From Planctomycetota bacterium (GTDB lineage Bacteria; Planctomycetota; UBA1135; JADKAF01): DNA of 64,000 bases. The DNA lies in contig JADKAF010000001.1 of assembly GCA_016719295.1 (NCBI GenBank), positions 4,704,267-4,768,266 of the forward strand. The letters are read 5' to 3'. Positions 40,231 through 60,858 of this stretch are shown here, in pieces. Made by a program: the position numbers and the translations under genes. Every line of letters begins with the position of its first letter. Position 1 is the stretch's first letter. The notes beneath the pieces were generated by a model that did not search any database, was not told where the DNA came from, and saw nothing but the letters and a program-made list of their open reading frames with translations.

Positions 40231-40482
40231 TCAGCGGCTCGTGAACGCCGACATCGCGGAGCTAGGATCCGCCTCGACCGCGGCCATCGAGGACGGCGTC
40301 CCCGCTTCGGAGTACGCGCGCGCCAATAGGCCCAGCATGCCCGCCGCGAACACCGCCGCGAGGAGCAGCCAGGTGATCGCGCGGACGCGCGGCTGAGGGG
40401 CGAGCTCGCGCGGATCGAAGCGGAGGCCGTGGGCGGATTCGCCTGGGCCGAGCTGGAAGAGGCCGGAGATGCGCTGGTTCAT
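40231..40482 (-). CDS. possible small membrane protein (83 aa)
   Basis: ATG 40482. One clear TM (ITWLLLAAVFAAGMLGLLA). It is the only plausible part of the long antisense track ORF 40231..42402. Weak call. Confidence 0.3.
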   Translation of the reverse strand: MNQRISGLFQLGPGESAHGLRFDPRELAPQPRVRAITWLLLAAVFAAGMLGLLARAYSEAGTPSSMAAVEADPSSAMSAFTSR

Positions 40483-40680
40483 CGCGAGCAGGGCAGGGAG
40501 AAGAGCACCGGGGGCAGGAACGCTCTCAACGCCCCATCTCCCGATAAGCGCCGCCAGAACTCCGAGTTTCGTGCCGCGGCGCTTCGGCGCACCCTCTTCC
40601 GCGGGTGGACCCGTGCGTGCTCGCGGAGGAGCGGCATCGCCCGCTACGCTGGACGCAACAGCCCCCTCGAAGGGAAGACC

Positions 40681-42534: not shown

Positions 42535-42542
42535 CCCCTCAC

Positions 42543-42566
42543 TGCACAGTAAAGGCGCCAGGCACC
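42543..42566 (+). repeat. single-arm copy of the 24-nt motif tgcacagtaaaggcgccaggcacc
   Basis: Matches 22 of 24 positions of the minus-strand reading of the palindrome at 43164..43198. It sits between the fucosidase stop (42534) and the alkB start (42575). Confidence 0.55.
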
Positions 42567-42574
42567 TCTACTCA

Positions 42575-43174
42575 ATGGAGATGCTGTTCGAGGACGCGAC
42601 ACTTGGCGCGTCGCTGAGCTACCACGCAGCCTTCCTGGAGCGCGGCGAGGCCGATGCGCTGCTCGCCTGGATGCTGGAGCGCGCACCGTGGCAGCGCGAA
42701 GCGCCGGTGCTGTTCGGCGTCGTGCGCGAGGTGCGGCGGAGGACGTGCGCGTTCGGCGAGGCGGGGCGGAGCTATCGCTACTCGGGGATCGAGCGGCGGG
42801 CGGAGCCGTGGCCCGAGCTCTTGCGACCAGTCGTCGAGCGCGTGCGCGCGCTCTGCGCGACGCGCTTCGACTTCGCGCTCGCGAACCTCTATCCCGATGG
42901 GGAGGCGGCGCTTGGGAAGCACGCCGACGACGAGCGCGACATCGTCGCGGAGAGCGCGATCGCGGGGCTATCGCTCGGCGCGGAGCGCGACTTCGTGCTG
43001 TATCGCAAGGGACCGCGCGGCGAACGGGTGGCGTCGGTGGCGCTCGCGCACGGATCGCTCGTCGTGATGTGGGGCACCACGCAGCAGCACTTCGTGCACG
43101 CCGTGCCGGCGCGGAAGCGCGTGCGCTCACCCCGCGTCAGCCTGACCTTCCGCGCGATGTCATTGCACAGTTAG
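42575..43174 (+). CDS. alkB: Fe(II)/2-oxoglutarate-dependent dioxygenase, AlkB-like
   Basis: Trimmed to ATG 42575. HxD...H ligands (LGKHADDE .. FVHAVP), RVSLTFR motif, ANLYPDG. Confidence 0.85.
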   Translation: MEMLFEDATLGASLSYHAAFLERGEADALLAWMLERAPWQREAPVLFGVVREVRRRTCAFGEAGRSYRYSGIERRAEPWPELLRPVVERVRALCATRFDFALANLYPDGEAALGKHADDERDIVAESAIAGLSLGAERDFVLYRKGPRGERVASVALAHGSLVVMWGTTQQHFVHAVPARKRVRSPRVSLTFRAMSLHS

Positions 43175-43198
43175 GGTGCCTGGCACCTTAACTGTGCA
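43164..43198. repeat. 35-nt palindrome (two inverted copies of the 42543 motif) that could act as a bidirectional terminator
   Basis: tgcacagttagggtgcc t ggcaccttaactgtgca forms a 17-bp stem with one mismatch. It contains the stop codons of both convergent genes: alkB TAG at 43172..43174, and the ATPase TAA on the complement of 43188..43190. Confidence 0.65.
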
Positions 43199-44519
43199 GC
43201 GGGCGGAGGAGCCAGCGCCAGAGTGCTTGCACCGCGAGGCCTTTCGGCGCTTGCCAGCCCCGCGGGATCGGACCGCTCACCAAGAGGAGTCGCTCCGCGT
43301 CGGGGTGCTCCTCGCTCGCCTCGGCAAGTGCTGTGAGCTCGCGCTCGCGCGTGTCGGCGGAGCCCAGATCATCGACGACTTGCACGAGCGTCTGCTCGCC
43401 CTCGCGCGTCGTCGCGAGGAAGTCGACTTCGCGGCTCGAGCTGGTCTTCACGTAGGCGAGTGCGTGTCCGCGGCGAAGGAGCTCACAGGCGACGAGGTTC
43501 TCGACGTGGAAGCCGCGATCGGTGTGCGCGCGCACCTGGTGCGCCGCGGCGAGACCGTGGTCCGCGAGGTAGAGCTTCCGCGGGTTGACTTGGCGACGTC
43601 GCTCCGAGTCCGTCGCCACGGGCAAAGTGAAGCAGAGGAAGGCGTCTTCCAGGTGATCGAGGAAGGCGAGCAGGGTCTCCTTCGCGACGCCGATCCCGCG
43701 CGAGCGGAAGTCCGCGTGCATCTTGCTCACGCTGAAGCTGCGGGCCGGCTGACGCACGAGCTGGCGCACGAAGGCGCGCAGCGCGACCAGGTTCGCGATG
43801 CCGTGGCGCTCGGCGACGTCGCGGAAGAGCACGCTCTCGACATAGCCCTGCAAGAGTTCGGCGCGTTGCGGCGCGAGATCCGCGCGCGAAGCTTCGGGGA
43901 ACCCGCCGATCTCGAGGTAGCTCTCGAAGCAGGCTTCCCAGGCTGACACCTCGCGCGCGCTGAGCACGTAGGGATCGGCAGGGATCTTCCGTCCGTGCGC
44001 GCGCCCGAACTCGCGCAAGCTGAACGGCGTGATCATGGTCTCCAACGCGCGGCCGCGCAGCGTGGTCGCGATCTCGCGGCTCAGCATCTTCGCCGAAGAG
44101 CCGCTGACGAAGATCTCGACCTTCTCGCTGTCGAGCATGCGGCGGATGAACTTCTCCCATCCGGGGATGAGCTGGATCTCGTCGAAGCACCAGGTCACGC
44201 GCTGGCTGCGCCGGTGCTGTGGGTAAGCGCGGTAATACTCATCGAGGAGGACGCCGAGGTCCGCGGCCTGCAGCCCCTCGAGCCGCTCATCCTCGAAGTT
44301 GAAGTAGAGCAGTCGCTCGCGCTCGATGCCTGCGGCCAAGCGATCCGCCAGGCATTGGAAGAGGAAGGTCGTCTTCCCGGCGCGGCGCATGCCGATCACG
44401 GCGCGGACCTTGCCAGGAACTTCGTCCGTGTCGATGTCTCGCGGCGTGTGAGGTGGGAGCTCGAAGCTGACGGCGTCCCCGAGCTTCTCGCGGATGGCGG
44501 AGAGGATTCGGTCGTTCAT
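43188..44519 (-). CDS. AAA-type ATPase with DUF4143-like C-terminal domain
   Basis: Walker A GMRRAGKTT, a typical AAA_14-like N-domain, and a C-terminal domain as in DUF4143 proteins (..HVENLVACELLRRG..). Confidence 0.85.
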   Translation of the reverse strand: MNDRILSAIREKLGDAVSFELPPHTPRDIDTDEVPGKVRAVIGMRRAGKTTFLFQCLADRLAAGIERERLLYFNFEDERLEGLQAADLGVLLDEYYRAYPQHRRSQRVTWCFDEIQLIPGWEKFIRRMLDSEKVEIFVSGSSAKMLSREIATTLRGRALETMITPFSLREFGRAHGRKIPADPYVLSAREVSAWEACFESYLEIGGFPEASRADLAPQRAELLQGYVESVLFRDVAERHGIANLVALRAFVRQLVRQPARSFSVSKMHADFRSRGIGVAKETLLAFLDHLEDAFLCFTLPVATDSERRRQVNPRKLYLADHGLAAAHQVRAHTDRGFHVENLVACELLRRGHALAYVKTSSSREVDFLATTREGEQTLVQVVDDLGSADTRERELTALAEASEEHPDAERLLLVSGPIPRGWQAPKGLAVQALWRWLLRPLHS

Positions 44520-44593
44520 GGCGACCGAATTGGATCAAAAGCGGTCGTCCGGGGCGACCGCATTTCCGCGTCGCGTCCTTCGCTCCAGGACGG

Positions 44594-47484
44594 CTAGGAC
44601 CGCCCCGGCTGCCTCCGCTGCAGCAACGCACGGCGCCGATCGAGCCCTTCCTGCCGCGCCTGCACGCGCTCGGCCGAGACGGTCGTCGCGCTCGAGGCCG
44701 GATCGCCGGAGTTCCGCAGGAAGTCGGCGAGCGAGCGCACCGTGGGGAAGCGGAAGAGGTCGGTGATCGAGGCGTGCACGGAGAGCTGGCGCTTGAGACG
44801 CCCCTGCACCTGCACGGTGAGGAGCGAGTGGCCGCCGAGATCGAAGAAGTTGTCGTCGCGGCCGACGCTGGGCAGCGTGAGCACCTCGGCCCAGATGGCG
44901 GCGATGGCGCGCTCGAGGTCGTCCTCGAGCTTCGTGTTCGACGGGGCCTTGGGTGCGGCGAGCTGCTCGGGATCGGGCAGCGCCTTGCGGTCGATCTTCT
45001 GGTTCGGCGTGTGCGGGAGCTCGGGGAGCGCCATCACCCGCGCGGGGATCATGAACTCGGGCAGCGACTCGCGGAGCTCCAAGCGCAGCGCGTCGGGAGC
45101 GAGCACGGCGCCGGGCTTCGGCGAGACGTAGGCGAGGAGGCGCGGCTCGCTGCTTGCGTCCTTGCGGACGACGACGGCGGCTTCGTGCACGCCGGCGCGC
45201 GCGCGCAGGGCGGCTTCGATCTCGCCGAGCTCGATGCGGTAGCCGCGCAGCTTCACCTGCTGGTCGACGCGGCCCAGGAACTCGAAGAGGCCGTCATCGC
45301 GGCGGCGCGCGATGTCGCCGGTGCGGTAGAGGCGCGGGGCACCGAGCTCGGCGGCGAGCGGGTGGTGCACGAAGCGCTCGGCGCTGAGCTCGGCGCGGTG
45401 GAGATATCCGCGCGCGACGCCGGTGCCGCCGATCCAGAGCTCACCGGAGAGCCCGCTCGGCACGGGTTGGCCGTACGCGTCCAGGACGAGGAAGAAGGTG
45501 TTCGCGATCGGTTCCCCGATCGGGATCTGCTCTTCGTCGCCGCGGAGCTCGTAGGTCGAGGACCAGATGGCCGTCTCCGTGGGGCCGTACATATTGATGA
45601 TGCGGCCGCGCATGTGCGCGCGGAGCTCGCGCGCGAGGGCCGGCGGGAACGCTTCGCCGCCGATCATCAGAAGCTCGAGCTTCGCGAGCGCTTCGGCGGA
45701 ACCGGACTGCGCGAGGATCATCGCGGCCATCGACGGCGTGCACTGGAGGTGCGTGATGCCGTGCGCGGCGATGAGCTCGGGGATGCTCTGACCCTGGGCG
45801 GCTTCCGCGCGCTGCGTCACGTGCTCGCGCAGGCGGTTCAAGTGGTCGATGTGCTCGAGGGCCAGCTCGGAGTCGACGCCGAAGTCGATCAAGCACGCGA
45901 TCTCGTCGATGCCTACGGACTCGAGGCGCTCGACCATGCGCTCGCAGGTCTCGAGCGTCCCGAAGAGGCCGCTGGTCTCGAAGTAGCGCTCGAAGGCGTT
46001 CTCGAGGATCGCCTCCAGGTCCTCCGCGGAGAGCTTCTCGAAGTCCCGACTCATCTCTTCCGCTTCGCCCGCGGAGTTCGTCTTGAAGGTGGGGAAGCTC
46101 GCGACGAAGGACTTCACGAGGCCGACGGAGCTACGCAGGTACTCGATCATCGGCCGCCGCACGAGCTCGCGCACGGAGTGATCGCAGTCGCCGACGAAGG
46201 CGTGCAGCATGATCGTGACGCGGCCTTCGCGCGGGCCATGGCCCGCTGCGCTCCACGCGCGGCGATAGGCCTCGACTTTCTCGCGCAGCTCCTCCACGGT
46301 CTGGCCGAGGAGGTGCGTCAGCACGTTCGCGCCGATCTTTCCGGCGGCGATCCAGGTGTCGACGTTGCCGGCGGTGGTGAGCCAGACCGGCAGCTCCTTT
46401 TGCACGGGGCGCGGAAGCGTGCGCACCGCGATCTTGCGACCGTCGGCGAGCGGGCGCTCGATCGACTCGCCGCGCCAGAGCGCGCGCACGGTCTCGATGC
46501 CGTCCATCAGGACTTGCTTGCGATCCGCGTAGTTCTGCGGCGCGAGCACGAAGTCATTGGGCTGCCAGCCCGAGGCGAACGCGATGCCGACGCGCCCTTG
46601 CGAGAGGTTGTCGACGAGCGACCATTCCTCGGCGACGCGCAGAGGGTCGTTGATGGGGAGAACGACGCTGCCGGCGCGGATCTGGATGCGCTTCGTGATC
46701 GAGGCGAGGGCCGCGCTCGCGACCGCGGGGTTGGGATAGAGGCCGCCGAAGGCGTGGAAGTGGCGCTCGGGCGACCAGACGGCTTCGAAGCCGAAGGCGT
46801 CGGCGCGGCGGGCACCTTCCATCAGCAGGCGGTACTTGTCGTGCGCCTTCTCGGCCTCGTCGCTGGCGAAGTAGAAGAGGCTGAAGTCGAGCTTCCTCCG
46901 CAACCCGCCCTTGCCGGAGGCGCGGCGATCATCGCCGGTGTAGAGCACGAGCTTCAGGCCGCGCGTCAGCGTCCAACAGATCTCGAGCACCGAGATGTCG
47001 AACGAGAGGCTCGTCACCGCCAGCCAGGCACCGCCCTCGCGCCGGCCGAGGCGCTGGTCCATGCCGGTGAAGAAGTTGAGCACGTTGCCGTGCTCGACCA
47101 TGACGCCCTTCGGCTTCCCGGTGGAGCCGGAGGTGTAGATGACGTAGGCCAAGTCCTTCGATGCGAGATGGCGCATCGGGGCGCTCGCGGGCTGCACCGC
47201 GATGCGCGAGGCGTCCTCGTCGAGGCGCACGACGGCGCCGCGGAACGCGGGGAAGAGCGAGCTCGTGTCTCCGAGCGTGACGAGCACGGGGACCTGCGCA
47301 TCCTCGACTTGGTACGAGAGGCGCTCGGACGGATACTCGGGGTCGAGCGGCAGATAGGCGCCGCCCGCCTTTTGGATCGCGAGCAGCGCTACGACCATCG
47401 GGACGCCGCGCGGCACGCAGATGCCGACGATCGTGCCTGTGGTGACACCGAGCACGCGGAGATGCCACGCGAGCTGATTCGCGC
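44594..47484 (-). CDS. NRPS fragment 2: adenylation domain with inserted luciferase-like monooxygenase, then PCP (frameshifted continuation of 47485..48989)
   Basis: Track ORF 44594..47590, meaningful from ~47484. A-domain cores LAYVIYTSGSTGKPKG, SLSFDIS, NMYGPTE, GELWIGGTGVARGY, YRTGD, KLRGYRIELGEIE, PNQKIDRKAL. An LLM-type domain (~45823..46891; FSLFYFASDE.., SPERHF, ..GIDEIACLIDFG) lies between the FDxS core and the pre-A5 region. PCP motif FFDLGGHSLL. No TE or R domain. Confidence 0.85.
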
Positions 47485-48989
47485 GCCTCGAGCTCGCGAT
47501 AGCGCAGCGACTGCGCGCCGCAGACGAGCGCCACGGCGTCCGGGGTCTTTCGCGCCTGCTCTTCGAACTGATCCGGGATCGTGCGCTCATGGGGCCACTC
47601 GCACGCGGTGCTGCGTCCGGCGGCGAGCAGCTCGGCGCGTTCGCGATCGCTCATCAAGCGCTGCTCGGCGAGCGGCGCGCGCGGTGCATCGGCGAACGAG
47701 GCGAGCAAGGTCTCCAAGTGCTCCATCGCGCGCGCCATCGCCGCATCGGCGAAGCGCGTGCGATCCCAGGAGAGCTGCAGCACGAGGCCGTCCTCGCCGT
47801 AGGCGTAGAGCGTCAGCGGGAACACCGTGCGCTCGTGCAGTGCGAAGTGGCGCTCGCGCTCGGCGCTCGAGAGCTCGCGGAGCTCGCCGTCCAGGATGCG
47901 ATCGTCATAGATCAGGATCGCTTCGAACAAGTGGCGCGCGCCGCTCGGCAAGCACCAGCGCTGGATGTCGACGAGCGGGGTCGTCTCGAAGGGCGCCAAC
48001 GCGCGGTTCTGCGCGCGGACTTCGCGCAGCCAATCGACGAGGGGCAGCTCGGGCTGCAAGCGCACGCGCAGCGGCAGCGTGTTGATGAAGGTGCCGACGA
48101 TCGACTCGGCGCCCTCGACGGAGGAGCGGCGGCAGGCGCGGATGCAGCCCAGCACGACCTCGCTCTCGCCGGCGTAGCGCGCGAGCAGCGTCGCGAACGC
48201 GGCTTGCACCACGTTGTTCAGCGAGGCGCCGCTCTGCTCGGCGAGGGCGCGGAGCTGCGCGGTGAGCGCCGGTGTCAGCGCACGACGGAGCAGCCCGCGA
48301 TCCTCACCCGGAGCGAAGCTCGTGGTCGTGGGACGCGGGGAGAGCGCTGGCAGCGTGCTGCCGCCGCTTCCCGCGAGCGCGCCGCGCCAGAACGCTTCCT
48401 CGGCCGTGGCGTTGCGCCGCTCGGCGAGGTGCGCGACGTGCGCGCGGAAGCCGCGCTGTGGCGGCAGCGCCGGCGCGGAAGCGCCCGCGCGCGCCGCGTC
48501 GTAGCTCGTGAACACTTCGCGCAACACTTGCGCGAAGCTGCGACCGTCGAGCAGCAGGTGATGGAAGGTCCACACCAAGCGCTGCTCGCGCGCACCGAAG
48601 CGGAAGAGCGAAAAGCGCAGCAGCGGCGCCTTCGCGAGCGCCATTCCGCCCTGGCGGTCCTCGCGGAGCCAACGCGCGAAGCGCTCCTCGCGCTCGGCCG
48701 CGGGCATGGTGCTCCAATCGTGATTCGTCCACGCGAGCTCGACCTGCGGCAGCACGCGCGCCACGGGTTCCGGCAGTCCCTCCCACGCGAACTCGGTGCG
48801 CAGCGCTTCGTGGTGCGCGATCACGCGACGCCACGCTGTCTGAAGTGTCGCGACATCCAGCTCCTCGCTCAGGTTCGCGACGATCTGCTCGAGATCGACG
48901 CCGGGATGCCCACCCGCGATGTGGTGGAAGAGCATGCCCTGCTGAATGGAGGTGAGCGGATGCTCGAGAGGGAGGTCGCGTTCGTTCAT
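47485..48989 (-). CDS. NRPS fragment 1: condensation domain plus start of the A domain
   Basis: ATG 48989 forms an ATGA overlap with the PPTase stop. C-domain motifs LTSIQQGMLFH and HHLLLDGRS. The track ORF 46929..49466 leaves the sensible frame right after ..SLRYRELEAR (~47485), where the 44594..47590 frame takes over (..ANQLAWHLRVLGV). Confidence 0.8.
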
Positions 48990-49777
48990 CGGGAGCACCA
49001 TGCGCCGGACTCGGCTCTGGAGCGAAGGTCTGCAGCGGCGTAGGGATAGCACTCCACGGCGGCGGTGCCGCGCGGAGCCGCGAGGGCGGCCGCGAACCCA
49101 GGTACGAGCTCGAGGTCGAGGACCCTCCACCCTACTTCGGAGGTAGAAGCCCCACGGCCGTGAAGGACCGCGCGCTCGTCGGAAGAACTTTCCGGATCGA
49201 TCTGGATGTCGAGGAGCGGTGCGCGGAGCCCTTCGCCGGTGGCCTTGATGTAGGCCTCCTTGCGGGTCCACGCCGCGAAGAACGCGCGGTCGCATCGCGT
49301 GGAGCTCGCGCGCTCGATCGCTGCGCGCTCTCCCGCGGTGAAGACGCGCTCCGCGACATCGTCGGCGTCGGGCAGTCGGTGGATCTCTTCGACATCGACG
49401 CCGAGCTCGCCGATCGCGCTGAGCGCGACGACGGCGACGCCGGCGCTGTGCGAGAGGTTGAACCATAGCGCGCCGGCGAGTTCACCCGCGAGCGTCGGCT
49501 TGCCGTCGGAGCGCACGCCGATCGGCACGCGCTCCGGCGCGAGCGAGAGCGCCCGCGCGAGCACGCGGCGCAGCGCGGCATGCGCGGCGATGTAGCGACG
49601 CTGCAGGAGCGGGATCTGGAATCGAGCGGCGCGCACGCGTTCTCCCTCATCGAGGAGGTCTCGCTCGCTCGGCGAGCTCGCCGCATCTCCATCGAGCTCG
49701 ATGGTGAAGACCGCGGCTGCCTCGGGTCGGAGCTGCCAGTCCGCCGGGAGTGCCGCGGAGTACTGCACCGCGATCAT
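48986..49777 (-). CDS. Sfp-type 4'-phosphopantetheinyl transferase
   Basis: Trimmed to ATG 49777, which forms an ATGA overlap with the upstream stop. Motifs FNLSHS, GVDVEEI, WTRKEAYIKATG. Confidence 0.85.
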   Translation of the reverse strand: MIAVQYSAALPADWQLRPEAAAVFTIELDGDAASSPSERDLLDEGERVRAARFQIPLLQRRYIAAHAALRRVLARALSLAPERVPIGVRSDGKPTLAGELAGALWFNLSHSAGVAVVALSAIGELGVDVEEIHRLPDADDVAERVFTAGERAAIERASSTRCDRAFFAAWTRKEAYIKATGEGLRAPLLDIQIDPESSSDERAVLHGRGASTSEVGWRVLDLELVPGFAAALAAPRGTAAVECYPYAAADLRSRAESGAWCSR

Positions 49778-50565
49778 CGCGCCACCGCCGTCGCGCGTCG
49801 GCGATTCCAGAGCGAAGCGGCGAGCAAACGCACGGCGAACGGGATGCCGTGCACGAGGTAGCGCTTGAACAGGCGTCGCGGCTCCTGGACCAAGCGATGC
49901 AGCCACTCCAGGCCGAGGCGTCGCACGAGCGGAGACGCGCGCTTCACGTCGCCGGTGACGAAGCTGAAGCTGATGCCGACGCCGAGCCACCACGCGCGCG
50001 GCAGGAGCTGGCGCAGCTCGGCGATCAAGCGCTCCTGCTTCGGAGAGCCGAGCGCCACGTAGACGATATCGGGCTGCAGGTCGACGAGCAGCTCGCGCAG
50101 CGCGCGCAGTGCCTGCTCGTCCTTCTCGAAGCCCGGTGCGGGGCACGCCGTGCCGCGCACGACGAGCCCGCGGTTGCGCTCCGCGAGGATGCGTCCCGCC
50201 GCTTCGGCCGTCCCCGGATCTCCACCGAGCAGGAAGATGCTGCGACCCGCGCGAGCGGCGGCGCTCGTCAGGCTCGAGATGAGATCGCTGCCGGCGACGC
50301 GCTCGGGCAGCGGGGTGCCCTGCAAGCGCGAAGCCCAGACCAGCGGCATGCCGTCGGCGACGAAGAGCTCAGCGCCGGCGCAGAGCTCGCGGTAGCTCTT
50401 CTCGTTTACGAGGCGGCGCAGGTGATCGAGGTTCGGTGTCACGATCCAACCGCCGCGGCCGGCGGCGAGCTCTTGAAGCACGTGCTCGACGCATTGCCCT
50501 TCGCGCACGGCATCGATCTCGACACCGAGCAGCTCGATCCGGTGCCACGCGCGAGCTCCGCTCAC
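49774..50565 (-). CDS. WecB/TagA/CpsF family (GT26) glycosyltransferase
   Basis: GTG 50565 forms a GTGA overlap with the GT2 stop. Family motifs WIVTPNLDHLR, ADGMPLVWASR, FLLGGDPG, VALGSPKQE. Confidence 0.85.
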   Translation of the reverse strand: MSGARAWHRIELLGVEIDAVREGQCVEHVLQELAAGRGGWIVTPNLDHLRRLVNEKSYRELCAGAELFVADGMPLVWASRLQGTPLPERVAGSDLISSLTSAAARAGRSIFLLGGDPGTAEAAGRILAERNRGLVVRGTACPAPGFEKDEQALRALRELLVDLQPDIVYVALGSPKQERLIAELRQLLPRAWWLGVGISFSFVTGDVKRASPLVRRLGLEWLHRLVQEPRRLFKRYLVHGIPFAVRLLAASLWNRRRATAVAR

Positions 50566-51506
50566 GAGGTGCTCTCCTGCGGCGGCCGCCAGACGCTCGC
50601 CTGCCGCTCGTCGAGCGCGCGCGTCGCGCGGCGCTTGCCTTGCACGAGGCACGCGAGCTGATAGCGGCGCAGGAACCTGCGGAACGCGGGATCCGCGTAA
50701 CGCTTCTTCCGCGCGAAGAAGCTCTTCAGCCAGCCCCACTCCATCGCCAATCCGCCGAGCACGTACGGCGGGTGCAGCATGCGGAAGAGCGCGCTGGCGC
50801 TCATGTACAGGAAGCCCGTGCCCATGAAGTGCTGGCCGGCGCCGTGGCGCACGCGTCCGGTGTAGATGCTCTTCTGCGAGGAGCCCATCGGGCGCAGGTG
50901 CTCGAAGGCGAGCTCCTCGTCGCCATAGCTCTCCGCGCGCCAGCCGAGCTGTCGCGCGCGATGGCAGTCGATGCCGTCCCACATCACCTCGCGCACGAAG
51001 CCGCCGATCTGCTCGAAGGCCGCTCTTCGGTAGAGCTTGGTCATGCCGACCGACATCTCGTCGCCGCAGCCCTCCGAGATTCGCTCGCCGTTCGGCCCGC
51101 GGAACCAAGGCTTGCCGCTGCAGGTCGCGAGCCGCGGCTCGGCCTCCATGCGAGCGAGCAGGATCTCGAAGTAGCGCGGCGGAATGTCGAGATCGAGATC
51201 GAACTTCGCGAAGTAGGGATAGCGCTCGGGCTCGGCGACCTCCCAACCGGCGTAGAAAGCGTCGATGACACCGGGCCCGACACTGCGATGGCCGCGGTTC
51301 TCGCGGCGCAGCACGCGGATCCACGAGTGCTTGGCGGCGTACTCGGCGAGGAGCTGCGGCGTCTCATCGGAGCTGCCGTCGTCGACGATCAGCCAGCACG
51401 CCGGCCGATGCGTCTGCGCGACCACGCTGTCCAAGGTGCGCCGCGCGTACGCGGCCTCGTCGCGGCACGGCGTGATGAGCAGATACGGCGGAAGCGGTGC
51501 GCTCAT
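50562..51506 (-). CDS. family 2 glycosyltransferase
   Basis: ATG 51506 forms an ATGA overlap with the asnB-like stop. GT2 N-terminus LLITPCRDEA..LDSVVAQT..WLIVDDGSSDET and a DxD-like FDLDLD. Hydrophobic C-terminal segments. Confidence 0.85.
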   Translation of the reverse strand: MSAPLPPYLLITPCRDEAAYARRTLDSVVAQTHRPACWLIVDDGSSDETPQLLAEYAAKHSWIRVLRRENRGHRSVGPGVIDAFYAGWEVAEPERYPYFAKFDLDLDIPPRYFEILLARMEAEPRLATCSGKPWFRGPNGERISEGCGDEMSVGMTKLYRRAAFEQIGGFVREVMWDGIDCHRARQLGWRAESYGDEELAFEHLRPMGSSQKSIYTGRVRHGAGQHFMGTGFLYMSASALFRMLHPPYVLGGLAMEWGWLKSFFARKKRYADPAFRRFLRRYQLACLVQGKRRATRALDERQASVWRPPQESTS

Positions 51507-54036: not shown

Positions 54037-54201
54037 GGCGGTCAAACTCCACGCGCGTGAGCACATCCGCGGATCGTGCCGCCGATGGCCTCGCAGCGCG
54101 CAGTGCGAGGGAGAGTTGTGTTTCGGGGAGAGATAGTCCCTCCAAACCTAGCCCGGCATCCCTCGAACTGTCCAGTCCCCGGATCAAGGAAGGGCCTTTT
54201 T

Positions 54202-54867
54202 TCAGCGCGGAGGCCGGAGCCAGGTCGGCAGGCCGCGCGTGCAGCGGTTCAGCAAAGTGCCCAGCAGGGGGATGGCGGCGCTCTCGAGCGAGCGCAGGAC
54301 GGGGCGCACATCCCCACGGCGGGTTCGACGCGCGTTGAGGACCAGGATCACCCCGTCCAACGAAGCCAGGATAGGCACCGTCTGCGGATGCGCGGGGGCT
54401 GGAGGGGCATCGACGATGAGATGGCTCCCGTCGCTGGTCAGGCGTTCCCAGATCTTCACGAGCTCGGCCGCGCGCGGCGGCACGCTGCTCGGCTTCGGAA
54501 CCCCGACGGGCAGGACGCGGAGGCCGGGAACATCGGTCGTGCGGACCGCGGCCTCGAAGGAGGACTCGCCGCTGCGGATCTCCTCGAGGCCGGGACCGGC
54601 AGGCAAGCCGACGAGCTGCGCCAGGCCGGGGCGGTGAGCATTGGCTTCGACGAGGACGACGCTGCGTCCGCCGTGCAGGGCGAGGCTGATCGCGGCGCAG
54701 GTGGCCGCGGTCGTCGTGCCGTCGCCATGCTCGCAGGCGGTGAAGGCGAGGCGGAGCGGGGCGTCGCTCGGCGCGCTGGCGAGCAAGCCGGTCCAGAGGG
54801 TGGCGAAGGTCGGGCCGAAGGGATCGAGGAGGTCGAGGAGGCCCGAACGCGAAGTGGGAGAGCTCAT
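54202..54867 (-). CDS. BY-kinase-like (CpsD/EpsG-type) P-loop protein with degenerate Walker A
   Basis: ATG 54867 forms an ATGA overlap with the wzz-like stop. Colinear with BY-kinase catalytic domains (VVLVEANAHRP ~ Walker A', HLIVDAPP ~ Walker B). Walker A reads ACEHGDGTTT with no Lys, and there is no C-terminal Tyr cluster. Confidence 0.7.
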   Translation of the reverse strand: MSSPTSRSGLLDLLDPFGPTFATLWTGLLASAPSDAPLRLAFTACEHGDGTTTAATCAAISLALHGGRSVVLVEANAHRPGLAQLVGLPAGPGLEEIRSGESSFEAAVRTTDVPGLRVLPVGVPKPSSVPPRAAELVKIWERLTSDGSHLIVDAPPAPAHPQTVPILASLDGVILVLNARRTRRGDVRPVLRSLESAAIPLLGTLLNRCTRGLPTWLRPPR

Positions 54868-56528
54868 GAGCGCGCCGCTCCCACCGCGGCTTGCCGGCGC
54901 GGTTGGGCGAGGTCGCGCGCCGACACCTCGGGCACGAGGCCGAGGACCGGAGTACCGAGGAGGCGCTTCACGTCGCCCGGCGAACGGAAGCGCCGTCCGA
55001 GGCGAGATCGCAGCAGCGCGAAGCCAACGCTGAGCGCACCGCCGACCAAGCCGCCGATCATCACCATGCGACCGCGGCGCGGGCCGCTCTTCTCGGCGAG
55101 CGAGCTGGCTCGCTGGATCTCGCGCAGGTTGATGAGGTTCATGCGATCGAGGTCGTCGAGGACGGCGATCTCCGCGCGCGCCGCCGTGACCTGATCCAGC
55201 TTCGAGCGCGCCTTGCTCGCCTCGTTCTGGAGGTAATTGAGGGTCGGGCTGCAGCGCTCCACCTCGGCCAGGTCGTCCTTCACGCTGGAGCGCCGGCCCT
55301 TGCGCTTGTCGGCTTCGCTGCGCAGAGAGACGAGCTCTATCTTGGCTGCATCCCGATCGACGACGAGGCGTTCGTAACGCGGGTTGGGCTGCTCGATCTG
55401 GCTCGGAGCGACTTCCTCGCGCTGGGGCGTCGACTCGAGCTCTTTGTCCGTTTCCTCGAGCTGCCTCTGGAGCGCGCGACGCTGGAGCTCGATCTTCTCC
55501 CGGCTCAAGTCGCTGCCGAACTCCAGCGCGACGAGCTGACCCTTCAGCTCGAGGCGTCGATCGGTGAGCGCGGTCCAGAGCGGATTGGGCTGGGCAGGAT
55601 TCGGCGCGAGCACCTTGCGCGTCGGCAGCTCTTCTTTCAGCTCGGCCTCCAAGGTCTGGACCGTCGCTTCGAGCGCCGCGATGCGTTCCTCGTCGGCGCG
55701 GATTCGCCCTTCGAGCTCCACCCTCTCGCGCTGGAGCTCGGCCCGCTCGCTGTCCGCGTCGAAGATGTTGCACTGCAGACGGTAGTCGGCGGCGGCCTTC
55801 TCTGCCGCAGCGAAGCTCGTGTTCGCCTCGGTGATCTCCTGATCGAGGAACTCCAGCCACGAGTTCGAGGAGAAGACGGATTGGTGCATGGCGCGAGCTT
55901 CCGCCATGAAGGTGTTCACCAGCTCGGCCGAGAGTCGGGGCGAGCTCGTCGTACAGATCACGGTGAGCACGCTCGAGTTCATCTCGGCACGCACGAGGAG
56001 AGCGCGCTGCAGGATCTTCGTCGCCACCGAGACGGCTGCTTCGGAATCGAGGCTCGCGGCGTTGGCTGCATCGCCTGAGAAGCTGCGGAACCAGAAGTCC
56101 TGGAACGAATGCAGCGCCTCGGTGACGAAGCCGTGGTCGATGCCCTGGCTCTGCGGATCGTAGGGAGCGAGCAGGCGGTCGGCGCCGATCTTGCGGACGA
56201 CGTTCTCGAAGAGATGCGGGTTCGCCAGCAGATGAAGCTCGTTCATCACGGCTTCGCGTGCGCTGGAGGCTCCGCCGCCGTCCGAGCCCATGATGCGCGA
56301 CTCTGCGGAGCCGCCTTCGCGCTCACCAGCGCGCACCAGCAGCTTGCCGGTCGCTTCGTAGGTGTTCGGCTCGATCGCCGCTCGGAAGGTCGCGATGGCG
56401 AGCCCGAGGCCGGTGAGCAAGCAGATCCAATAGCGCGCGTGCCAGAGCGGCGCGACGAAGGCCTCGACCAGATCGACGGGCGGGCGACGCTGCTGGTCGC
56501 TCGCCTCCTGCTCGCTAGAGAATGGCAT
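54864..56528 (-). CDS. polysaccharide chain-length determinant (Wzz/GumC/EpsF-like PCP)
   Basis: N-terminal TM (YWICLLTGLGLAIATF), long coiled-coil periplasmic region, second TM (MVMIGGLVGGALSVGFALL). This matches typical PCP-2 architecture without a fused kinase. Confidence 0.8.
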   Translation of the reverse strand: MPFSSEQEASDQQRRPPVDLVEAFVAPLWHARYWICLLTGLGLAIATFRAAIEPNTYEATGKLLVRAGEREGGSAESRIMGSDGGGASSAREAVMNELHLLANPHLFENVVRKIGADRLLAPYDPQSQGIDHGFVTEALHSFQDFWFRSFSGDAANAASLDSEAAVSVATKILQRALLVRAEMNSSVLTVICTTSSPRLSAELVNTFMAEARAMHQSVFSSNSWLEFLDQEITEANTSFAAAEKAAADYRLQCNIFDADSERAELQRERVELEGRIRADEERIAALEATVQTLEAELKEELPTRKVLAPNPAQPNPLWTALTDRRLELKGQLVALEFGSDLSREKIELQRRALQRQLEETDKELESTPQREEVAPSQIEQPNPRYERLVVDRDAAKIELVSLRSEADKRKGRRSSVKDDLAEVERCSPTLNYLQNEASKARSKLDQVTAARAEIAVLDDLDRMNLINLREIQRASSLAEKSGPRRGRMVMIGGLVGGALSVGFALLRSRLGRRFRSPGDVKRLLGTPVLGLVPEVSARDLAQPRRQAAVGAARS

Positions 56529-56531
56529 GGG

Positions 56532-57260
56532 CTAGTAGACCGGTGGCGCCGCGACGCCGGGGAACGGCAGCATGCGGCGAATGTATTGATCGACCCAGAT
56601 GTCGACGTCGTCGATCGGCGTGTTCGGGATGAAGATCACGTCGTGCGGCTGGAGCAAGAGCGCGGCTCCTTCTTCCCAGCGCTCGACCGAAGCGTCGATG
56701 CGCCACGACCGTTGGCGCTTCTCGGCCTGCGACCACCGGACGAGGAGGGCGTACTCCAGCATCGCGGTCTCTTTGCGCGGACCACCTGCCGCGGCGAGCG
56801 CTTCGACCATGGACATGCGCCCCTTGATCGGAACCTCTCCTGGCTCGATCACATCGCCCATCACATACACGCTGCGGATGCCCTGGAGCCCGAAGGTGAT
56901 GTTCACGTCGGAAGCAGGGCTGTTGGGGTACTGCTTCGCGATGAGCGCGCGGATCGGGGCTTCCGCCTCGGCCGCCGTGAGCCCGCCGATTTGGACCTCC
57001 CCGAGCGAGCCCAGCGTGGTCTTTCCGTCCGGGCGCACATCCGCCGTGATCGAACGCTCGGGAGTATCGCTCGTGGCGAGCCAGAGGATGGAGACGGTGT
57101 CTCCTGGCACCAGCAGCGACGGGCCGGGCTCGAGGGTAGCGTTGGCCTCGAGGGCGACCTCGAACATCGGGCGGCCATACGAGGTGCAGCCGGCCTCGAG
57201 CAGCGAGGCGGCGAGGAGGCTCAGGGCGATCAGGAGCCCACGGAGGGGGGTTGGTCTCAC
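56532..57260 (-). CDS. polysaccharide export protein (Wza/EpsE-like OPX lipoprotein)
   Basis: GTG 57260. Lipobox LLEAG|C. Poly_export motif region (PGDTVSI..DGKTTLGSLGEVQIGGLTAAEAE) and an SLBB-like domain (VYVMGDVIEPGEVPI). Stop lies 3 nt before the wzz-like start. Confidence 0.85.
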   Translation of the reverse strand: MRPTPLRGLLIALSLLAASLLEAGCTSYGRPMFEVALEANATLEPGPSLLVPGDTVSILWLATSDTPERSITADVRPDGKTTLGSLGEVQIGGLTAAEAEAPIRALIAKQYPNSPASDVNITFGLQGIRSVYVMGDVIEPGEVPIKGRMSMVEALAAAGGPRKETAMLEYALLVRWSQAEKRQRSWRIDASVERWEEGAALLLQPHDVIFIPNTPIDDVDIWVDQYIRRMLPFPGVAAPPVY

Positions 57261-57501
57261 CAGCGCGGCCTACTCTGTCTCGAGTCCGGTTCCAGGGACG
57301 AGGGGCGGGGTATCTAGGGCTGGCGCGGCGAGCTTTGCAAGCCGGTGCTCGACCAGTACCGCCTAGCCCCAGACCGGACGGCGAGAAGTCGAGGCCTGGG
57401 GAGCCCTGACGGAGCCTTCGGCTCGGCCAGGTCGAGACCTGCGCGCCTCCGCCGCGAATCCCCGACGCGATCCCGCCAAAGGGGCGCGGCGCTCACGGCG
57501 C

Positions 57502-57510
57502 GGGGGGGGG
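57502..57510. repeat. homopolymeric G9 tract in divergent intergenic region
   Basis: c ggggggggg c read directly at 57502..57510. It lies 242 nt upstream of the wza-like start (minus strand) and 520 nt upstream of the sugar transferase start (plus strand). Confidence 0.9.
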
Positions 57511-58029
57511 CAGGTGACCGCGTCTGGGAACGCGTCTAGGAATTCGCAAAATGCCGAGTTACTCGCAGCCCCCGCGGCGGTTCCATCCAAAGAGCTCGCT
57601 CCGGTCGACGCTCCACCGCCGCTTGGGGTTTACGAGGCTGCCAAGCTCTAGATCTGGTGCGGCGCAGCGTCGCAGGCTTTGGAGGTTGCGTCCAAAGCCC
57701 CGGCGACATGGTCTAGAACAGCGATTTTCTGTCGCGTCGCCGGCGGATTTCTCGTTGTGAAGATTCGCGTCGGAACGGAACCAGCCGACAGCTCTCTCGT
57801 ATCCCTGTGCCACTCGTGGGCGCCCTCGAATAGGGGTGCGCGGCCGGTAGGAAGGACATTCCCGATCCGAGCCGCCTCCTTTGCTCGACGTGGTTTCCCG
57901 CGATACCCTACGAGATTGCTATTACCCGACCGCGCTCGCGCGGACGGGCTCGTCTCCAGACAGTAAACTCCCTGCGATGGGCGCCGCGAGCGATCGCCGC
58001 GCCATCATCGTCCGTCCCTCAGGATCGCC

Positions 58030-59388
58030 ATGTACTTCCAGCGTCTGTGGCGGGGTCTCGTCCGACTCCTGCCGCTGACTCGCAAGACTCTCGTCCCCGA
58101 GATCTTGCAGCTCGACCAGTTCCGCCGCCTGCTCCAGCGGGAGCGGAACCGCGCGGACCGCGTCCGTTCGCAGCTCTCGCTGGTCGTTCTCGACCTCGGC
58201 GCGCCCGAGGTCCGCTCCGTCCATCTGGCCGACATCCTGATGTCGATCCAGGAGCGCATCCGCGAGACCGACGCCGCGGGCTGGTTCGATCGACGCAGCA
58301 TCGGCGTCCTCCTCCCCGAGACCGGCGCGGCCGGAGCCATGGTCCTCGCGAAGGACCTGAACCGCCGCCTCTTCGCCGTCTCGGCAACGGCAGCCTGGCG
58401 CATCTACACCTACCCCGAGGACACCATGCCGCCCGAGCGGCCCTCCTCGAATTCGCGCGACTCCAGCGAGACCCGTCGAGGTTCGGGCCTCGGCCTGCCC
58501 TTGCCGAGCGGAAGCCCCTCCGGCGTCTCCTCGCCGGCTCCGAGCGGCGCGCCCATCAGCTCCGGAGCGGCTTCTGCCTCGACCTCTTCTGCGTCCGGCT
58601 CGGCGTCGGGTTCGGGCTCGGGATCGAGCACCTCGACCGCGACGCGCCTCCCGCGATCCACTTCCCGAGGAGCGGAGGTCGCCCCGCGACCTGCTTCGCG
58701 CAGAGCGGAGGCCACGGAGCGCCCGGAGGTGCGGAACGCCGAGCCGCAGCAGATGCAGACCGCGCCGCTGCGCTCGCTGCTCGTGATCCCGCGTTCGCCC
58801 TGGACCCGTCTCTTCGACATCACCGTGGCGTCGCTGGTGCTGCTGCCCGTTTCGCCGATCATCCTGCTCGCGGCGATCGCCGTGCGCCTCAGCTCGCCCG
58901 GGCCGGCGTTCTTCCGGCAGGAGCGCATGGGGCGCTGGGGGCGCACGTTCACGATCTACAAGCTGCGCTCGATGTACGAGGACGCCGACAAGCGCAAGCA
59001 AGAGGTTCTGGAGCTGAACGAGCAGACCGGCCCGGTCTTCAAATGCGCGAAGGATCCGCGCATCACGCCGCTCGGTCGCTTGCTGCGCCGCACCAGCATC
59101 GACGAGCTCCCGCAGCTCTGGAACGTGCTGAAGGGCGACATGTCCATCGTCGGGCCGCGGCCGCCGCTCCCGTCGGAGGTGGAGGAATACCAGCCCTGGC
59201 AGCTCCGCCGCCTCGAGATGCAGTCGGGACTCACCTGCATCTGGCAGGTCAGCGGCCGCAGCCAGATCAAGTTCGATGACTGGGTCCGCCTCGATATCCG
59301 CTACGGGCGCATGAAGAGCCTCTGGTTCGATCTGCGCTTGCTCGCGCGCACGCTGCCCGCGGTACTCACCGGGCGCGGCGCGACGTAG
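58030..59388 (+). CDS. priming polyprenyl-phosphate sugar phosphotransferase (bacterial sugar transferase family) with N-terminal degenerate GGDEF-like domain
   Basis: C-terminal PGT domain (FDITVASLVLLPVSPIILLAAIAV, FFRQERMG, TIYKLRSM, DELPQLWNVLKGDMSIVGPRP). The N-terminal ~110 aa are colinear with GGDEF domains. A Ser/Gly/Ala/Pro low-complexity linker joins them. Confidence 0.9.
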   Translation: MYFQRLWRGLVRLLPLTRKTLVPEILQLDQFRRLLQRERNRADRVRSQLSLVVLDLGAPEVRSVHLADILMSIQERIRETDAAGWFDRRSIGVLLPETGAAGAMVLAKDLNRRLFAVSATAAWRIYTYPEDTMPPERPSSNSRDSSETRRGSGLGLPLPSGSPSGVSSPAPSGAPISSGAASASTSSASGSASGSGSGSSTSTATRLPRSTSRGAEVAPRPASRRAEATERPEVRNAEPQQMQTAPLRSLLVIPRSPWTRLFDITVASLVLLPVSPIILLAAIAVRLSSPGPAFFRQERMGRWGRTFTIYKLRSMYEDADKRKQEVLELNEQTGPVFKCAKDPRITPLGRLLRRTSIDELPQLWNVLKGDMSIVGPRPPLPSEVEEYQPWQLRRLEMQSGLTCIWQVSGRSQIKFDDWVRLDIRYGRMKSLWFDLRLLARTLPAVLTGRGAT

Positions 59389-59493
59389 AGTTCGTTCGCG
59401 CACAGGTAGCTGCTCGGCCCGAGACCGCGCGACACGCGCCGTTCTCGGGCCGCACCATTTCAGGCGGGCGCCACGAGAGGTCGATCGGCGACC

Positions 59494-60858
59494 ATGAATC
59501 CGCGGCGCCAGCCGAAACTCCGAGCCATGTCCCGCGAACCGAGCGCCGAGTCCCCGAGCGAGCTCCGCCCGCTCCTGATCGCCGAAGCGGCGAACCCCGA
59601 GTGGGTGAGCGTGCCGCTCGTCGGCTGGAGCCACGCGCACGCGCTGCTGAAGAAGACGCGCGGCCATCTCGTCACGCAGATCCGCAACCGCGACGCGATC
59701 CTGCGCGCCGGTCTCGTCGAGGGCCGCGACTTCACCGCGATCGACTCGGAGCGCAGCGCGCGCCTCGCCGATCGCGTGGCGCGGCTCCTCCGCGGCAAGT
59801 CGGGCGTCGCCTGGACGATGGTGACAGCGCTGCAATCGCTGGCCTACCCGCACTTCGAACGCCTCGTCTGGAAACAGTTCGGCGCGCGGCTCCGCGCAGG
59901 GGAGTTCGATCTCGTCCATCGCATCACGCCGCTGAGCCCGACGACCCCGAGCTCGCTCGCCAAGCGCTGCGCGCGTATCCGCGTGCCCTTCGTCCTCGGC
60001 CCGTTGAACGGCGGCCTGCCCTGGCCGCGCGCGTTCGACCGCGAGCGCCGCCGCGAGCGCGAGTGGCTGAGCTACATCCGCGGCGCGTACAAGCTGATGC
60101 CGGGCTATCGCGCGACGCGCGCGCACGCCGCCGCGATCCTGGTCGCCTCCCGCGCGACGGCCGAGCAGATGCCGAAGCGCCAGCGCGGCAAGTGCTATTA
60201 CCTGCCCGAGAACGGCATCGATCCCGCGCGCTTCGCGCGGCGCCGCACGCACACGGCGAAGCTGCCGCTGCGCCTGATCTTCATCGGCCGCCTCGTGCCG
60301 TACAAAGGCGCCGACATGCTGCTCGAAGCGGCACTCCCGCTGCTGCGCGCCGGGGCGCTCCTGCTCGAGATCGTCGGCGACGGTCCGCAGATGTCCGAGC
60401 TGCGCGCCACCGTCGAGCAGGAAGGGCTCGCGGAGCGCGTGGCGCTCGCCGGTTGGGTCGAGCACGCGCGCGTGCAGGATCGACTGGTAGAAGCCGACCT
60501 GATGGTTTTGCCCAGCATCCGCGAGTTCGGCGGCGGGGTCGTGCTCGAGGCGATGGCCGTGGGCGTTCCACCGGCGGTGGTCGCGTACGGCGGACCCGGC
60601 GAGCTCGTGAGCGATAACCTCGGTTTCCGCATCGAGCTCGGAACACGCGCGGAGATCGTCGCGCGCCTGCGCGCGCTCTTGGATCGCCTCGTCGCGGATC
60701 CCGCGGCGATCGATCGACGCGCGGAGCCCGCGTGGCGCTGCGCGCACGAGCGCTTCGCCTGGAGCTCCAAGGCCGATCAGACGCTCGCGTTCTACGAGTG
60801 GGTGCTCGGGCGGCGCGCGGTCTCGCCGCTGCCGGCGTGGACGGAGATCCCCGGCTGA
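59494..60858 (+). CDS. GT-B fold glycosyltransferase (GT4-like)
   Basis: C-terminal Glycos_transf_1 motifs (LIFIGRLVPYKGADMLLEA, GWVEH, ADLMVLPSIREFGGGVVLEAMAVGVP). Confidence 0.85.
   Translation: MNPRRQPKLRAMSREPSAESPSELRPLLIAEAANPEWVSVPLVGWSHAHALLKKTRGHLVTQIRNRDAILRAGLVEGRDFTAIDSERSARLADRVARLLRGKSGVAWTMVTALQSLAYPHFERLVWKQFGARLRAGEFDLVHRITPLSPTTPSSLAKRCARIRVPFVLGPLNGGLPWPRAFDRERRREREWLSYIRGAYKLMPGYRATRAHAAAILVASRATAEQMPKRQRGKCYYLPENGIDPARFARRRTHTAKLPLRLIFIGRLVPYKGADMLLEAALPLLRAGALLLEIVGDGPQMSELRATVEQEGLAERVALAGWVEHARVQDRLVEADLMVLPSIREFGGGVVLEAMAVGVPPAVVAYGGPGELVSDNLGFRIELGTRAEIVARLRALLDRLVADPAAIDRRAEPAWRCAHERFAWSSKADQTLAFYEWVLGRRAVSPLPAWTEIPG

Follow-up and report, generated by a model that had tools for sequence, protein, structure and literature searches.

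What does a glycine-activating module whose adenylation domain is interrupted by a monooxygenase do in a polysaccharide locus, with no assembly line upstream of it? The question is raised by a nonribosomal peptide synthetase (NRPS) gene at positions 44594..48989, minus strand, of a 64,000-nucleotide stretch of contig JADKAF010000001.1 from a Planctomycetota bacterium; the whole stretch is called the window here. The protein combines a condensation (C) domain, an adenylation (A) domain with an embedded luciferase-like monooxygenase (LLM, or MOx) and a peptidyl carrier protein (PCP, or T). An A domain interrupted in this manner is the textbook device for terminal-amide formation, and a sequence-only reading of the same DNA had likened the protein to MtaG, with an implied amide-releasing role at the end of a line. 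A monooxygenase inside a glycine A domain, as it appears from the loci described below, does not automatically mean a terminal amide. We consider it somewhat more probable than otherwise that this NRPS is the initiation module of a two-protein pathway, formed with a polyketide synthase (PKS), which is widespread and uncharacterised and, in this lineage, linked to glycans. Several hundred single-module proteins from at least ten phyla would then use the interrupted A domain at the start of a two-module NRPS-PKS pathway.

The monooxygenase-interrupted glycine module

Encoding 1465 amino acids after one frameshift is mended, the NRPS gene starts with an ATG at 48989, which overlaps the TGA of the upstream phosphopantetheinyl transferase (PPTase) gene as ATGA, and ends with a stop codon at 44594-44596. 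Two overlapping open reading frames (ORFs) span it on the minus strand, 46929..49466 with the C domain and the first adenylation residues and 44594..47590 with the remainder, and tblastn placed the two halves collinear with the orthologues of loci L001 and L002 in two frames. Two plus-strand ORFs (44774..48085 and 47589..49043) were rejected as Arg/Ala-rich shadows of the minus-strand gene, which are typical at 70% G+C.

The C domain (47625..48962, residues 10-455; Pfam PF00668, E=5e-75) retains the C3 motif HHLLLDG at residue 143, and its nearest relatives in the PDB are the C domains of McyB and PvdL. It is followed by the N-terminal part of the A domain with motifs A1-A4 (46919..47567; Pfam AMP-binding over residues 475-691 and a second stretch), which carries A3 as YTSGSTGKPKG and A4 as FDIS (residue 664). 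The C-terminal part with A5-A10 (44996..45808, residues 1062-1332, with AMP-binding_C at 1257-1332) contains A5 as NMYGPTE (residue 1133), A7 as YRTGD, A8 as GRVDQQVKLRGYRIELGE and A10 as NQKIDR. Both halves of the A domain therefore keep their core motifs, and the LLM domain (45827..46885, residues 703-1055) is inserted between A4 and A5. It scores 512 bits against NCBIfam TIGR04020, the model of the MupA/Atu3671 family of FMN-dependent luciferase-like monooxygenases of natural-product pathways, whose cut-off is 244, and the match covers profile positions 1-341, the full length of the model; Pfam Bac_luciferase matches residues 716-1029 (E=1e-44). The PCP domain (44717..44908, residues 1362-1425; PF00550, E=9e-16) has its phosphopantetheine-accepting serine in GGHS, at residue 1389. 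Searches of the protein with Pfam and NCBIfam gave no match to the thioesterase (TE) family PF00975, and the chain stops 40 residues past the PCP, in a basic tail (44597..44716; …ERVQARQEGLDRRRALLQRRQ…) that is conserved in relatives with the same domain order (C-type) and in those with a formyltransferase-like domain in place of C (F-type). The sequence-only reading had named the same domain order, an insert at about 45823..46891 lying between FDxS and NxYGPTE, TIGR04020 as the family and the lack of a TE; the domain matches agree with it on every point, the borders of the insert to within two codons.

Glycine is well supported as the substrate by comparison of the specificity residues. The A domain without its insert was aligned to GrsA-PheA, whose reference sequence reproduced all ten canonical positions from D235 to K517, which validated the numbering; a gap that MAFFT misplaced at position 331 was resolved by the ungapped comparison of NMYGPTETAIW with NAYGPTETTIC, which gives W. 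The resulting code, D-I-L-Q-M-G-M-I-W-K, is identical to that derived by hand in the sequence-only reading, and its residues vary little or not at all among 13 aligned family members. According to a survey of 2051 A domains, the four MOX-bearing Gly domains all have the code DILQLGMIWK, and Gly codes are variable at positions 299, 322 and 330 (PMC12283262). The window code is identical to it at nine of the ten positions, the sole change being L to M at 299.

The nearest solved structure to the LLM insert is the Ox domain of PuwE (PDB 6KET; E=5e-119, ~57% identity over 347 residues), which is credited with the 2-hydroxyl of a β-amino fatty acid, introduced on a carrier-bound acyl chain (PMC4219810). 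The α-carbon of glycine is the target of the MOx domains of MtaG and MelG and of SolF's FMO domain (PMC11342130, PMC10204066), and the literature on this kind of domain describes a single reaction, hydroxylation alpha to the thioester (PMC11342130, PMC10204066, PMC4219810). By analogy, the window LLM probably α-hydroxylates an N-acyl-glycine bound to the PCP. With MtaG and MelG the carbinolamide then collapses into the terminal amide and glyoxylyl-S-PCP, which is hydrolysed by the TE (PMC11342130, PMC10204066), and solanimycin B retains the α-hydroxyglycine introduced by SolF while the chain is extended many times (PMC10204066).

The likeness to MtaG and MelG of the myxothiazol and melithiazol pathways, to judge by their published description, extends to the insertion of an LLM-type monooxygenase between A4 and A5 of a glycine A domain (PMC10204066), the shared topology on which the sequence-only reading had been built, to a Gly code near-identical to that of MOX-bearing domains (PMC12283262) and to the presumed hydroxylation of Cα. 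In contrast, MtaG and MelG, which are C-A(MOx)-PCP-TE proteins, are the last modules of long PKS/NRPS lines, possess a TE and sacrifice glycine for the terminal amide, whereas the window NRPS has neither a TE nor an upstream line, appears to act first and is followed by a PKS-TE module. The MtaG-like reading thus holds for architecture, family, substrate and probable chemistry, but not for the role as a terminal module. SolF, module 4 of the solanimycin line in Dickeya solani, is a non-terminal glycine module of C-A(FMO/LLM)-T order (PMC10204066) and, by analogy, the best precedent for the mechanism proposed below, although it is one part of a multimodular line and takes over a polyene acyl chain, whereas the window protein stands alone in a glycan operon and has one PKS module as its partner. 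The PuwE domain of the puwainaphycin pathway is likewise credited with a hydroxylation at the α-carbon of a carrier-bound thioester (PMC4219810), but it is located between PKS and NRPS parts instead of inside an A domain, and its proposed substrate is a β-amino/keto fatty acyl chain.

Relatives and the candidate polyketide synthase partner

A protein search with the NRPS gave 2082 matches at E<=1e-30, the best of which is 70% identical. Among the best 120 of them, most are proteins of 1420-1540 aa with an identical architecture, and these relatives come from Planctomycetota, Myxococcota, Gemmatimonadota, Burkholderiales, Gammaproteobacteria and metagenomes. A separate scan of genome contigs supplied further loci; its listed matches are all at most 53% identical, hence not the nearest relatives, and most cover only residues ~400-1460 of the NRPS. 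The four nearest loci visible are L001, L002, L086 and L087. The window genes for an AsnB-type glutamine amidotransferase (51515-53440, minus strand; nearest to the XrtA/PEP-CTERM system amidotransferase model), a family-2 glycosyltransferase (GT2; 50562-51494, minus strand), a glycosyltransferase of the WecG/TagA/CpsF family that resembles EpsA (49774-50562, minus strand), an Sfp/HetI-type PPTase (48986-49747, minus strand; PF01648, NF042922 HetI-like) and the NRPS form a block with overlapping gene ends, which suggests translational coupling. This block is syntenic in L001, L002 and L086 and partly so in L087, and the first three loci also encode a divergent PKS of 2141-2182 aa, which matches the ketosynthase (KS), acyltransferase (AT) and ketoreductase (KR) families along with six others. 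Where the flank is visible, this PKS is of KS-AT-KR-dehydratase (DH)-acyl carrier protein (ACP)-TE order.

Among C-type relatives further away, the PKS adjoins the NRPS. A gene for a protein of KS-AT-KR-DH-ACP order is located directly 3' of the C-A(LLM)-T gene, on the same strand, in L003 (Gemmatimonadaceae), L004 (a gammaproteobacterium), L005, L010 (Novilysobacter), L022 and L033, and it is followed by two α/β hydrolases or a further C-A-T module. The two-module L089 shows the same order, and a KS comes directly after the two-module protein P0006 (C-A-T-C-A(LLM)-T). In a neighbour-joining tree of LLM domains, which has no support values and a star-like base, the window protein falls among the single-module C-type proteins, beside the F-type clade, and that group excludes the LLMs of multimodular lines, such as those of Myxococcus xanthus L051 and Corallococcus L016. 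Small ORFs beside the NRPS in L003 and L005 were considered as ACP donors and rejected, as they have no ACP features.

The F-type proteins form a sister family with the same partner. In Thalassovita litoralis (L015) an N-terminal formyltransferase-like domain (Pfam Formyl_trans_N) takes the place of C and keeps the Asn-His-Asp residues in ...NFHDGPLP...IDEGD..., and the genes run in the order Wzx, PKS (KS-AT-KR-DH-ACP-TE, 2130 aa), GT2, F-A(LLM)-PCP, PPTase, Wzz, BY-kinase, epimerase, GT2 and GT4, an order that recurs in about twenty Rhodobacteraceae loci. This is the cassette reported from 28 of 57 genomes of the Roseobacter clade, with an uncharacterised product (PMC4337385), and described as the most frequent 'completely unknown' biosynthetic gene cluster, of the 'NRPS-like/T1PKS' kind, with an NRPS gene of 4527 nt and a PKS gene of 6333 nt (PMC10584327); the NRPS and PKS genes of L015 are equal to these in size. 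In Phaeobacter inhibens the PKS is Inhi_1972 and the NRPS Inhi_1974 (PMC4062626). The window resembles it in the A(LLM)-PCP part, with LLM domains 50-53% identical, and in the GT2 and PPTase genes that accompany the pair among Wzx, Wzz and BY-kinase genes; it differs in that the cassette has a formyltransferase-like domain where the window NRPS has C and is without the AsnB and WecG genes of the window. Altogether, F-A(LLM)-T proteins are paired with an orthologous PKS in about 30 loci, and the PKS follows directly in Chloroflexota, Acidobacteriota, Actinomycetota, Sphingomonadales, Comamonadaceae and others. Further F-A(LLM)-PCP members, including L008, L011, L013, L034, L038 and L045-L047, are each paired with a KS-AT-KR-DH-ACP(-TE) PKS. 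Since the pair in L008, L011 and L013 is flanked by housekeeping genes only, with no glycosyltransferases, the two genes constitute a self-contained core. Isolation of this kind is frequent outside Rhodobacteraceae.

The candidate partner in the window is the KR-DH-ACP-TE tail of a PKS (60892..>64000, minus strand) that runs off the window. It is collinear with residues 1149-2113 of the L015 PKS at 42% identity, which covers the KR-DH-ACP-TE part only, and its nearest homologue is P0121, at 64% identity. Many homologues of this tail (for example P0122, P0140, P0175 and P0178) are proteins of only 1000-1400 aa although their contigs are long. The PKS of some genomes therefore seems to be divided between a KS-AT protein and a (psi-KR)-KR-DH-ACP-TE protein, and the window PKS could be of either kind.

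The order of action can be read from the partner and from the F-type proteins. The partner KS, including that of L001 and L002, has the catalytic Cys (in VQTACSTS) and both His, begins at about residue 12 and has no loading AT-ACP; with its condensing residues intact and no loading domain, it depends on a primer bound to a carrier protein, and besides its own ACP the conserved gene set encodes just one, the NRPS PCP. An F-A-T module has no means of taking over a chain from an earlier module and can therefore serve only as an initiator. Wherever the two genes adjoin, the NRPS comes before the PKS, and a TE closes the window PKS and its L015 orthologue but not the window NRPS. A basic stretch of ~20 residues after the PCP is common to the window protein and to the NRPSs that directly precede a PKS, and a TE stands there instead in P0062 and P0064, C-A(LLM)-T-TE relatives at 48-49% identity; judged from this distribution, the tail is a candidate docking element for the PKS. 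Because the F-type cannot receive a chain, the gene order is constant, the KS lacks a loading domain, the TE is on the PKS and the tail is conserved, the NRPS would act first and the PKS second.

Proposed pathway, its rivals and the state of the gene

In the pathway that we propose, the Sfp-type PPTase, co-translated with the NRPS, would prime the PCP of the NRPS and the ACP of the PKS, and the A domain would activate glycine and load it onto the PCP. The C domain would N-acylate the glycine from an acyl thioester, a step that the formyltransferase domain would perform in the sister family, and the embedded FMN-dependent LLM would hydroxylate Cα of the tethered N-acyl-glycine. The N-acyl-α-hydroxyglycyl unit would then be passed to the KS of the single KS-AT-KR-DH-ACP-TE PKS; less likely, the carbinolamide collapses first and a glyoxylyl unit is passed on. 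The PKS would add one malonate-derived C2 unit, reduce and dehydrate it, and the TE would release the product. With C- and F-versions that have a common PKS partner and, in several lineages, are wired into glycan operons, this leads to a testable proposal: a small acid derived from α-hydroxyglycine, possibly glycosylated or attached to a polysaccharide.

Several observations weigh against this reading. The PKS is 7 kb away from the NRPS operon in the window and divergent in L001, L002 and L086; as it is neither adjacent nor collinear in the window and its nearest relatives, the order of action is deduced from less closely related loci. The window ends before the KS-AT part of its PKS, which lies beyond position 64000, and among its best 120 matches the tail did not recover the full-length PKSs of L001, L002 and L086. 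The C domain resembles elongation C domains (McyB, PvdL, SrfA-C), the PDB matches giving no clear discrimination of a starter type, and the conserved block holds no gene for an acyl donor, neither ACP nor ligase. By BLASTP, the window GT2 (E=0.02) and PPTase (E=0.7) have no significant similarity to their L015 counterparts; they are not orthologous to these, although they correspond in role. The glycan link is lineage-specific, given that the L008, L011 and L013 pairs are without glycosyltransferases; it is seen in Rhodobacteraceae, the window clade and a small number of further lineages, and may amount to no more than adjacency. We found no characterised product in the literature for any member of this cluster type, and the Roseobacter cluster is itself called uncharacterised (PMC4337385, PMC10584327). 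Finally, the frameshift may make the gene dead in its source organism.

The terminal role implied by the sequence-only reading would have the module join a PKS or fatty acyl chain to glycine, hydroxylate it and let it collapse, so that a primary amide is released while a trans-acting hydrolase clears the glyoxylyl-S-PCP. Its topology and glycine code do fit characterised MOx domains (PMC11342130, PMC10204066); the intact HHxxxDG of an elongation-like C domain, the PKS in the neighbourhood and the TE-bearing P0062 and P0064 would suit it too. We regard this role as unlikely, since the protein has no TE and no upstream multimodular line, and its sole partner is a single PKS module whose own TE would be internal and without a role. 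Adjacent genes are always ordered NRPS then PKS, the F domain that replaces C in the sister family makes a receiving function impossible, and the partner KS is a normal Cys-His-His condensing enzyme without a loading domain, which needs a primer that only the NRPS PCP, among the conserved carrier proteins, is there to offer. A variant of the proposed pathway, to which we give an equally low probability, starts from the collapse itself: the N-acyl group would only enable hydroxylation, the amide would be discarded, and glyoxylyl-S-PCP would prime the PKS to give a 4-oxo-2-enoyl (fumaraldehydic-type) C4 unit. Such a collapse of N-acyl-α-hydroxyglycyl thioesters is accepted for myxothiazol and melithiazol (PMC10204066, PMC11342130), and a discarded N-acyl group would easily explain why unrelated F and C domains are interchangeable before a homologous A(LLM)-T and PKS. 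The variant is nevertheless pure inference, and the carbinolamide survives extension in solanimycin B (PMC10204066). The exchange of F and C before the same core may simply vary the N-acyl group; it fits products that differ in this group equally well.

More improbable still is a direct modification of the glycan without the PKS, in which a (hydroxy)glycine or N-acyl-glycyl group would be moved to an amino sugar or hydroxyl of the exopolysaccharide (EPS) repeat unit, a logic analogous to that of the Dlt or AlmEFG carrier-protein systems. The NRPS does share an operon with a GT2, a WecG-type glycosyltransferase and AsnB, and P0064 occurs along with two further NRPS-TE proteins of one module each, a GT4, a Bac_transf protein and WbqC; however, practically all loci with sufficient flanking sequence have a KS-AT-KR-DH-ACP PKS beside the A(LLM)-T gene, and the conserved tail after the PCP suggests a protein partner.

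A different doubt concerns the activity of the gene in this strain, and not its identity. The frameshift to which the sequence-only reading had alluded is real in this sequence: at 47480..47487 (minus strand) a GGCGCGCG run is 2 bases short relative to the orthologues, and within 47440-47530 an intact frame would read GGCGCGCGCG where the window has GGCGCGCG. The frames meet at ...SLRYRELEAR / ANQLAWHLR..., in the A1 motif region of the A domain; the codons there are TAC CGC GAG CTC GAC CGG CGC GCC AAC CAG in the L001 orthologue and TAT CGC GAG CTC GAG GCG CGC G AAT CAG in the window. With the L001 and L002 orthologues as tblastn queries, the halves abut without loss, residue 509/510 of L001 mapping to 47481-47488. 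As sequenced, the gene could not yield the full-length protein: the upstream frame gives the C domain plus ~180 out-of-frame residues, and the downstream part could restart only at the ATG at 47590, without A1. If the 2-nt deletion is true, C is uncoupled from A(LLM)-PCP, A1 is lost and nothing is made here. Such an inactive pseudogene is possible but doubtful. In its favour, every other window gene that was checked reads in a single frame, AsnB, GT2, WecG and PPTase by tblastn with orthologues, and gyrA, dapF and other genes elsewhere without a frameshift, which means that the assembly is not generally error-prone. A second frameshift between the PPTase and WecG genes, hinted at by a scan of third-position GC, was ruled out in the same tblastn comparison. 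On the other side, the lesion stands alone in a GC dinucleotide run, a typical site of slippage, assembly or consensus errors, third-position GC is high in both halves (0.89-0.93), and the gene has no further stops or indels relative to the orthologues and keeps all its catalytic motifs. A single lesion in such a run, with third-position GC and motifs untouched, points to either a consensus error or a very recent mutation.

Surrounding genes and the possible glycan link

The description of the window as a polysaccharide locus in the sequence-only reading is correct for the neighbours of the NRPS, with the addition of the PKS at the window edge. Upstream of the AsnB gene are genes for a small secreted protein (53800-54066, minus strand), a BY-kinase (54202-54846, minus strand), a Wzz-like protein (54864-56531, minus strand), Wza (56532-57269, minus strand), an initiating transferase like EpsZ/WbaP (57967-59388, plus strand) and an EpsH-like GT4 (59410-60858, plus strand). 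The exopolysaccharide assembly and export genes, 54202..60858, thus separate the PKS from the NRPS operon. The AsnB, Wzz-like and BY-kinase proteins best match models of the XrtA/PEP-CTERM system, all below cut-off, and there is no exosortase gene among the genes of the 64-kb window.

Since the NRPS here shares an operon with two glycosyltransferases and AsnB, in what we read as an exopolysaccharide locus of the exosortase type, its small product in this lineage probably becomes glycosylated or is joined to a polysaccharide or primes one; this is the weakest part of our model. It is suggested by the syntenic AsnB-GT2-WecG-PPTase-NRPS block, by the Rhodobacteraceae set of PKS, GT2, NRPS and PPTase flanked by Wzx, Wzz and BY-kinase, by the glycan genes of the P0064 locus, the hydrolases of L004 and the below-cut-off XrtA-model matches of the window, and by the neighbours of P0121, which is found beside Wza-Wzz-BY-kinase-Bac_transf genes, a 100-aa protein and an exosortase/Rce1-like fusion; the lack of an exosortase gene in the window speaks against it. 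As a tentative extension, which we think more doubtful than the initiation role itself, the pair of C/F-A(Gly,LLM)-PCP and PKS would make a glycine-derived, α-oxygenated C4 unit, either an N-acyl-aminal or a glyoxylyl-derived enoyl acid, onto which glycosyltransferases would build or which they would attach to an exopolysaccharide. If this were true, surface glycans from Roseobacters to Myxococcota and Planctomycetota would share a primer or substituent made on an assembly line, and this would parallel the unexplained set of ligase, ACP and hydrolases in exosortase EPS loci.

Known systems offer partial parallels for such a link. The accessory genes of XrtA/PEP-CTERM EPS loci (AMP-ligase, ACP, hydrolases 1 and 2 and amidotransferase; TIGR03098, 03100, 03101, 03108) likewise represent a carrier-protein acyl/aminoacyl system in an EPS locus, but in the window an NRPS and a PKS take the place of the simple ligase and ACP, its model matches are below the cut-offs and it is without an exosortase. 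RkpA of the Sinorhizobium rkp-1 region and WcbR of the Burkholderia pseudomallei CPS I locus are type I PKSs in surface-polysaccharide loci, with a proposed lipid or primer of the glycan as their product; these systems pair the PKS with an acyltransferase of the α-oxoamine-synthase type, not with an LLM-bearing NRPS.

Among the related loci, the two hydrolases that follow the NRPS-PKS pair in L004 (20181-21852) best match TIGR03101 (99 bits) and TIGR03100 (84 bits), the models of exosortase A system-associated hydrolase 2 and 1, respectively, both below cut-off, and two α/β hydrolases directly after the pair are seen in L003 and L005 too. L088, the contig of P0064, holds an O-antigen-like locus (1390-16552) with three single-module NRPS proteins that each have their own TE, of C-A(LLM)-T-TE, A-T-TE and F-(C)-A-T-TE order, followed by a GT4, a short Bac_transf protein and WbqC, which suggests aminoacyl substituents made on carrier proteins and placed on sugars. 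Between the PKS and AsnB genes of L001 (2146-3870), L002 (3767-5308) and L086 (1033-2625) lies a gene for a protein of 513-574 aa that is predicted to cross the membrane about ten times, matches no Pfam family and contains the conserved loop FPTEDGYLMLTIARN; this protein may be a glycosyltransferase of the GT-C type. The window has no homologue of it, and the Wza, Wzz, kinase, EpsZ and EpsH genes fill that position.

The small secreted protein at 53800-54066 has 88 aa, with a signal peptide, a Thr/Gly-rich stretch and a C-terminal tail NAPEIDPTLATGLIVLLVGGVLILTSRVRSAR, which we take to resemble a sorting signal of the PEP-CTERM type (VPEID-like); it matched no NCBIfam model. Its homologue in L090 (11501-11803), with the tail DAPEINP...TARLRRR, adjoins a gene for an exosortase/Rce1-like fusion (12227-13807). 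On the other side of the NRPS, an unrelated ATPase of the AAA_14/DUF4143 type (43188-44534, minus strand) is encoded directly downstream; its gene was absent from this place in all relatives examined and may be a sign that the operon end has been rearranged or has received an insertion. Further along are genes for an AlkB-like 2-oxoglutarate-Fe(II) oxygenase (42467-43174, plus strand), an α-L-fucosidase (40330-42534, plus strand) and a Ser/Thr protein kinase fused to an FGE-sulfatase (SUMF1-like) domain (37716-40019, minus strand). The presence of parB (1410-2309), dapF (9114-9986) and a complete gyrA (11886-14465), all on the plus strand, indicates that the window is chromosomal.

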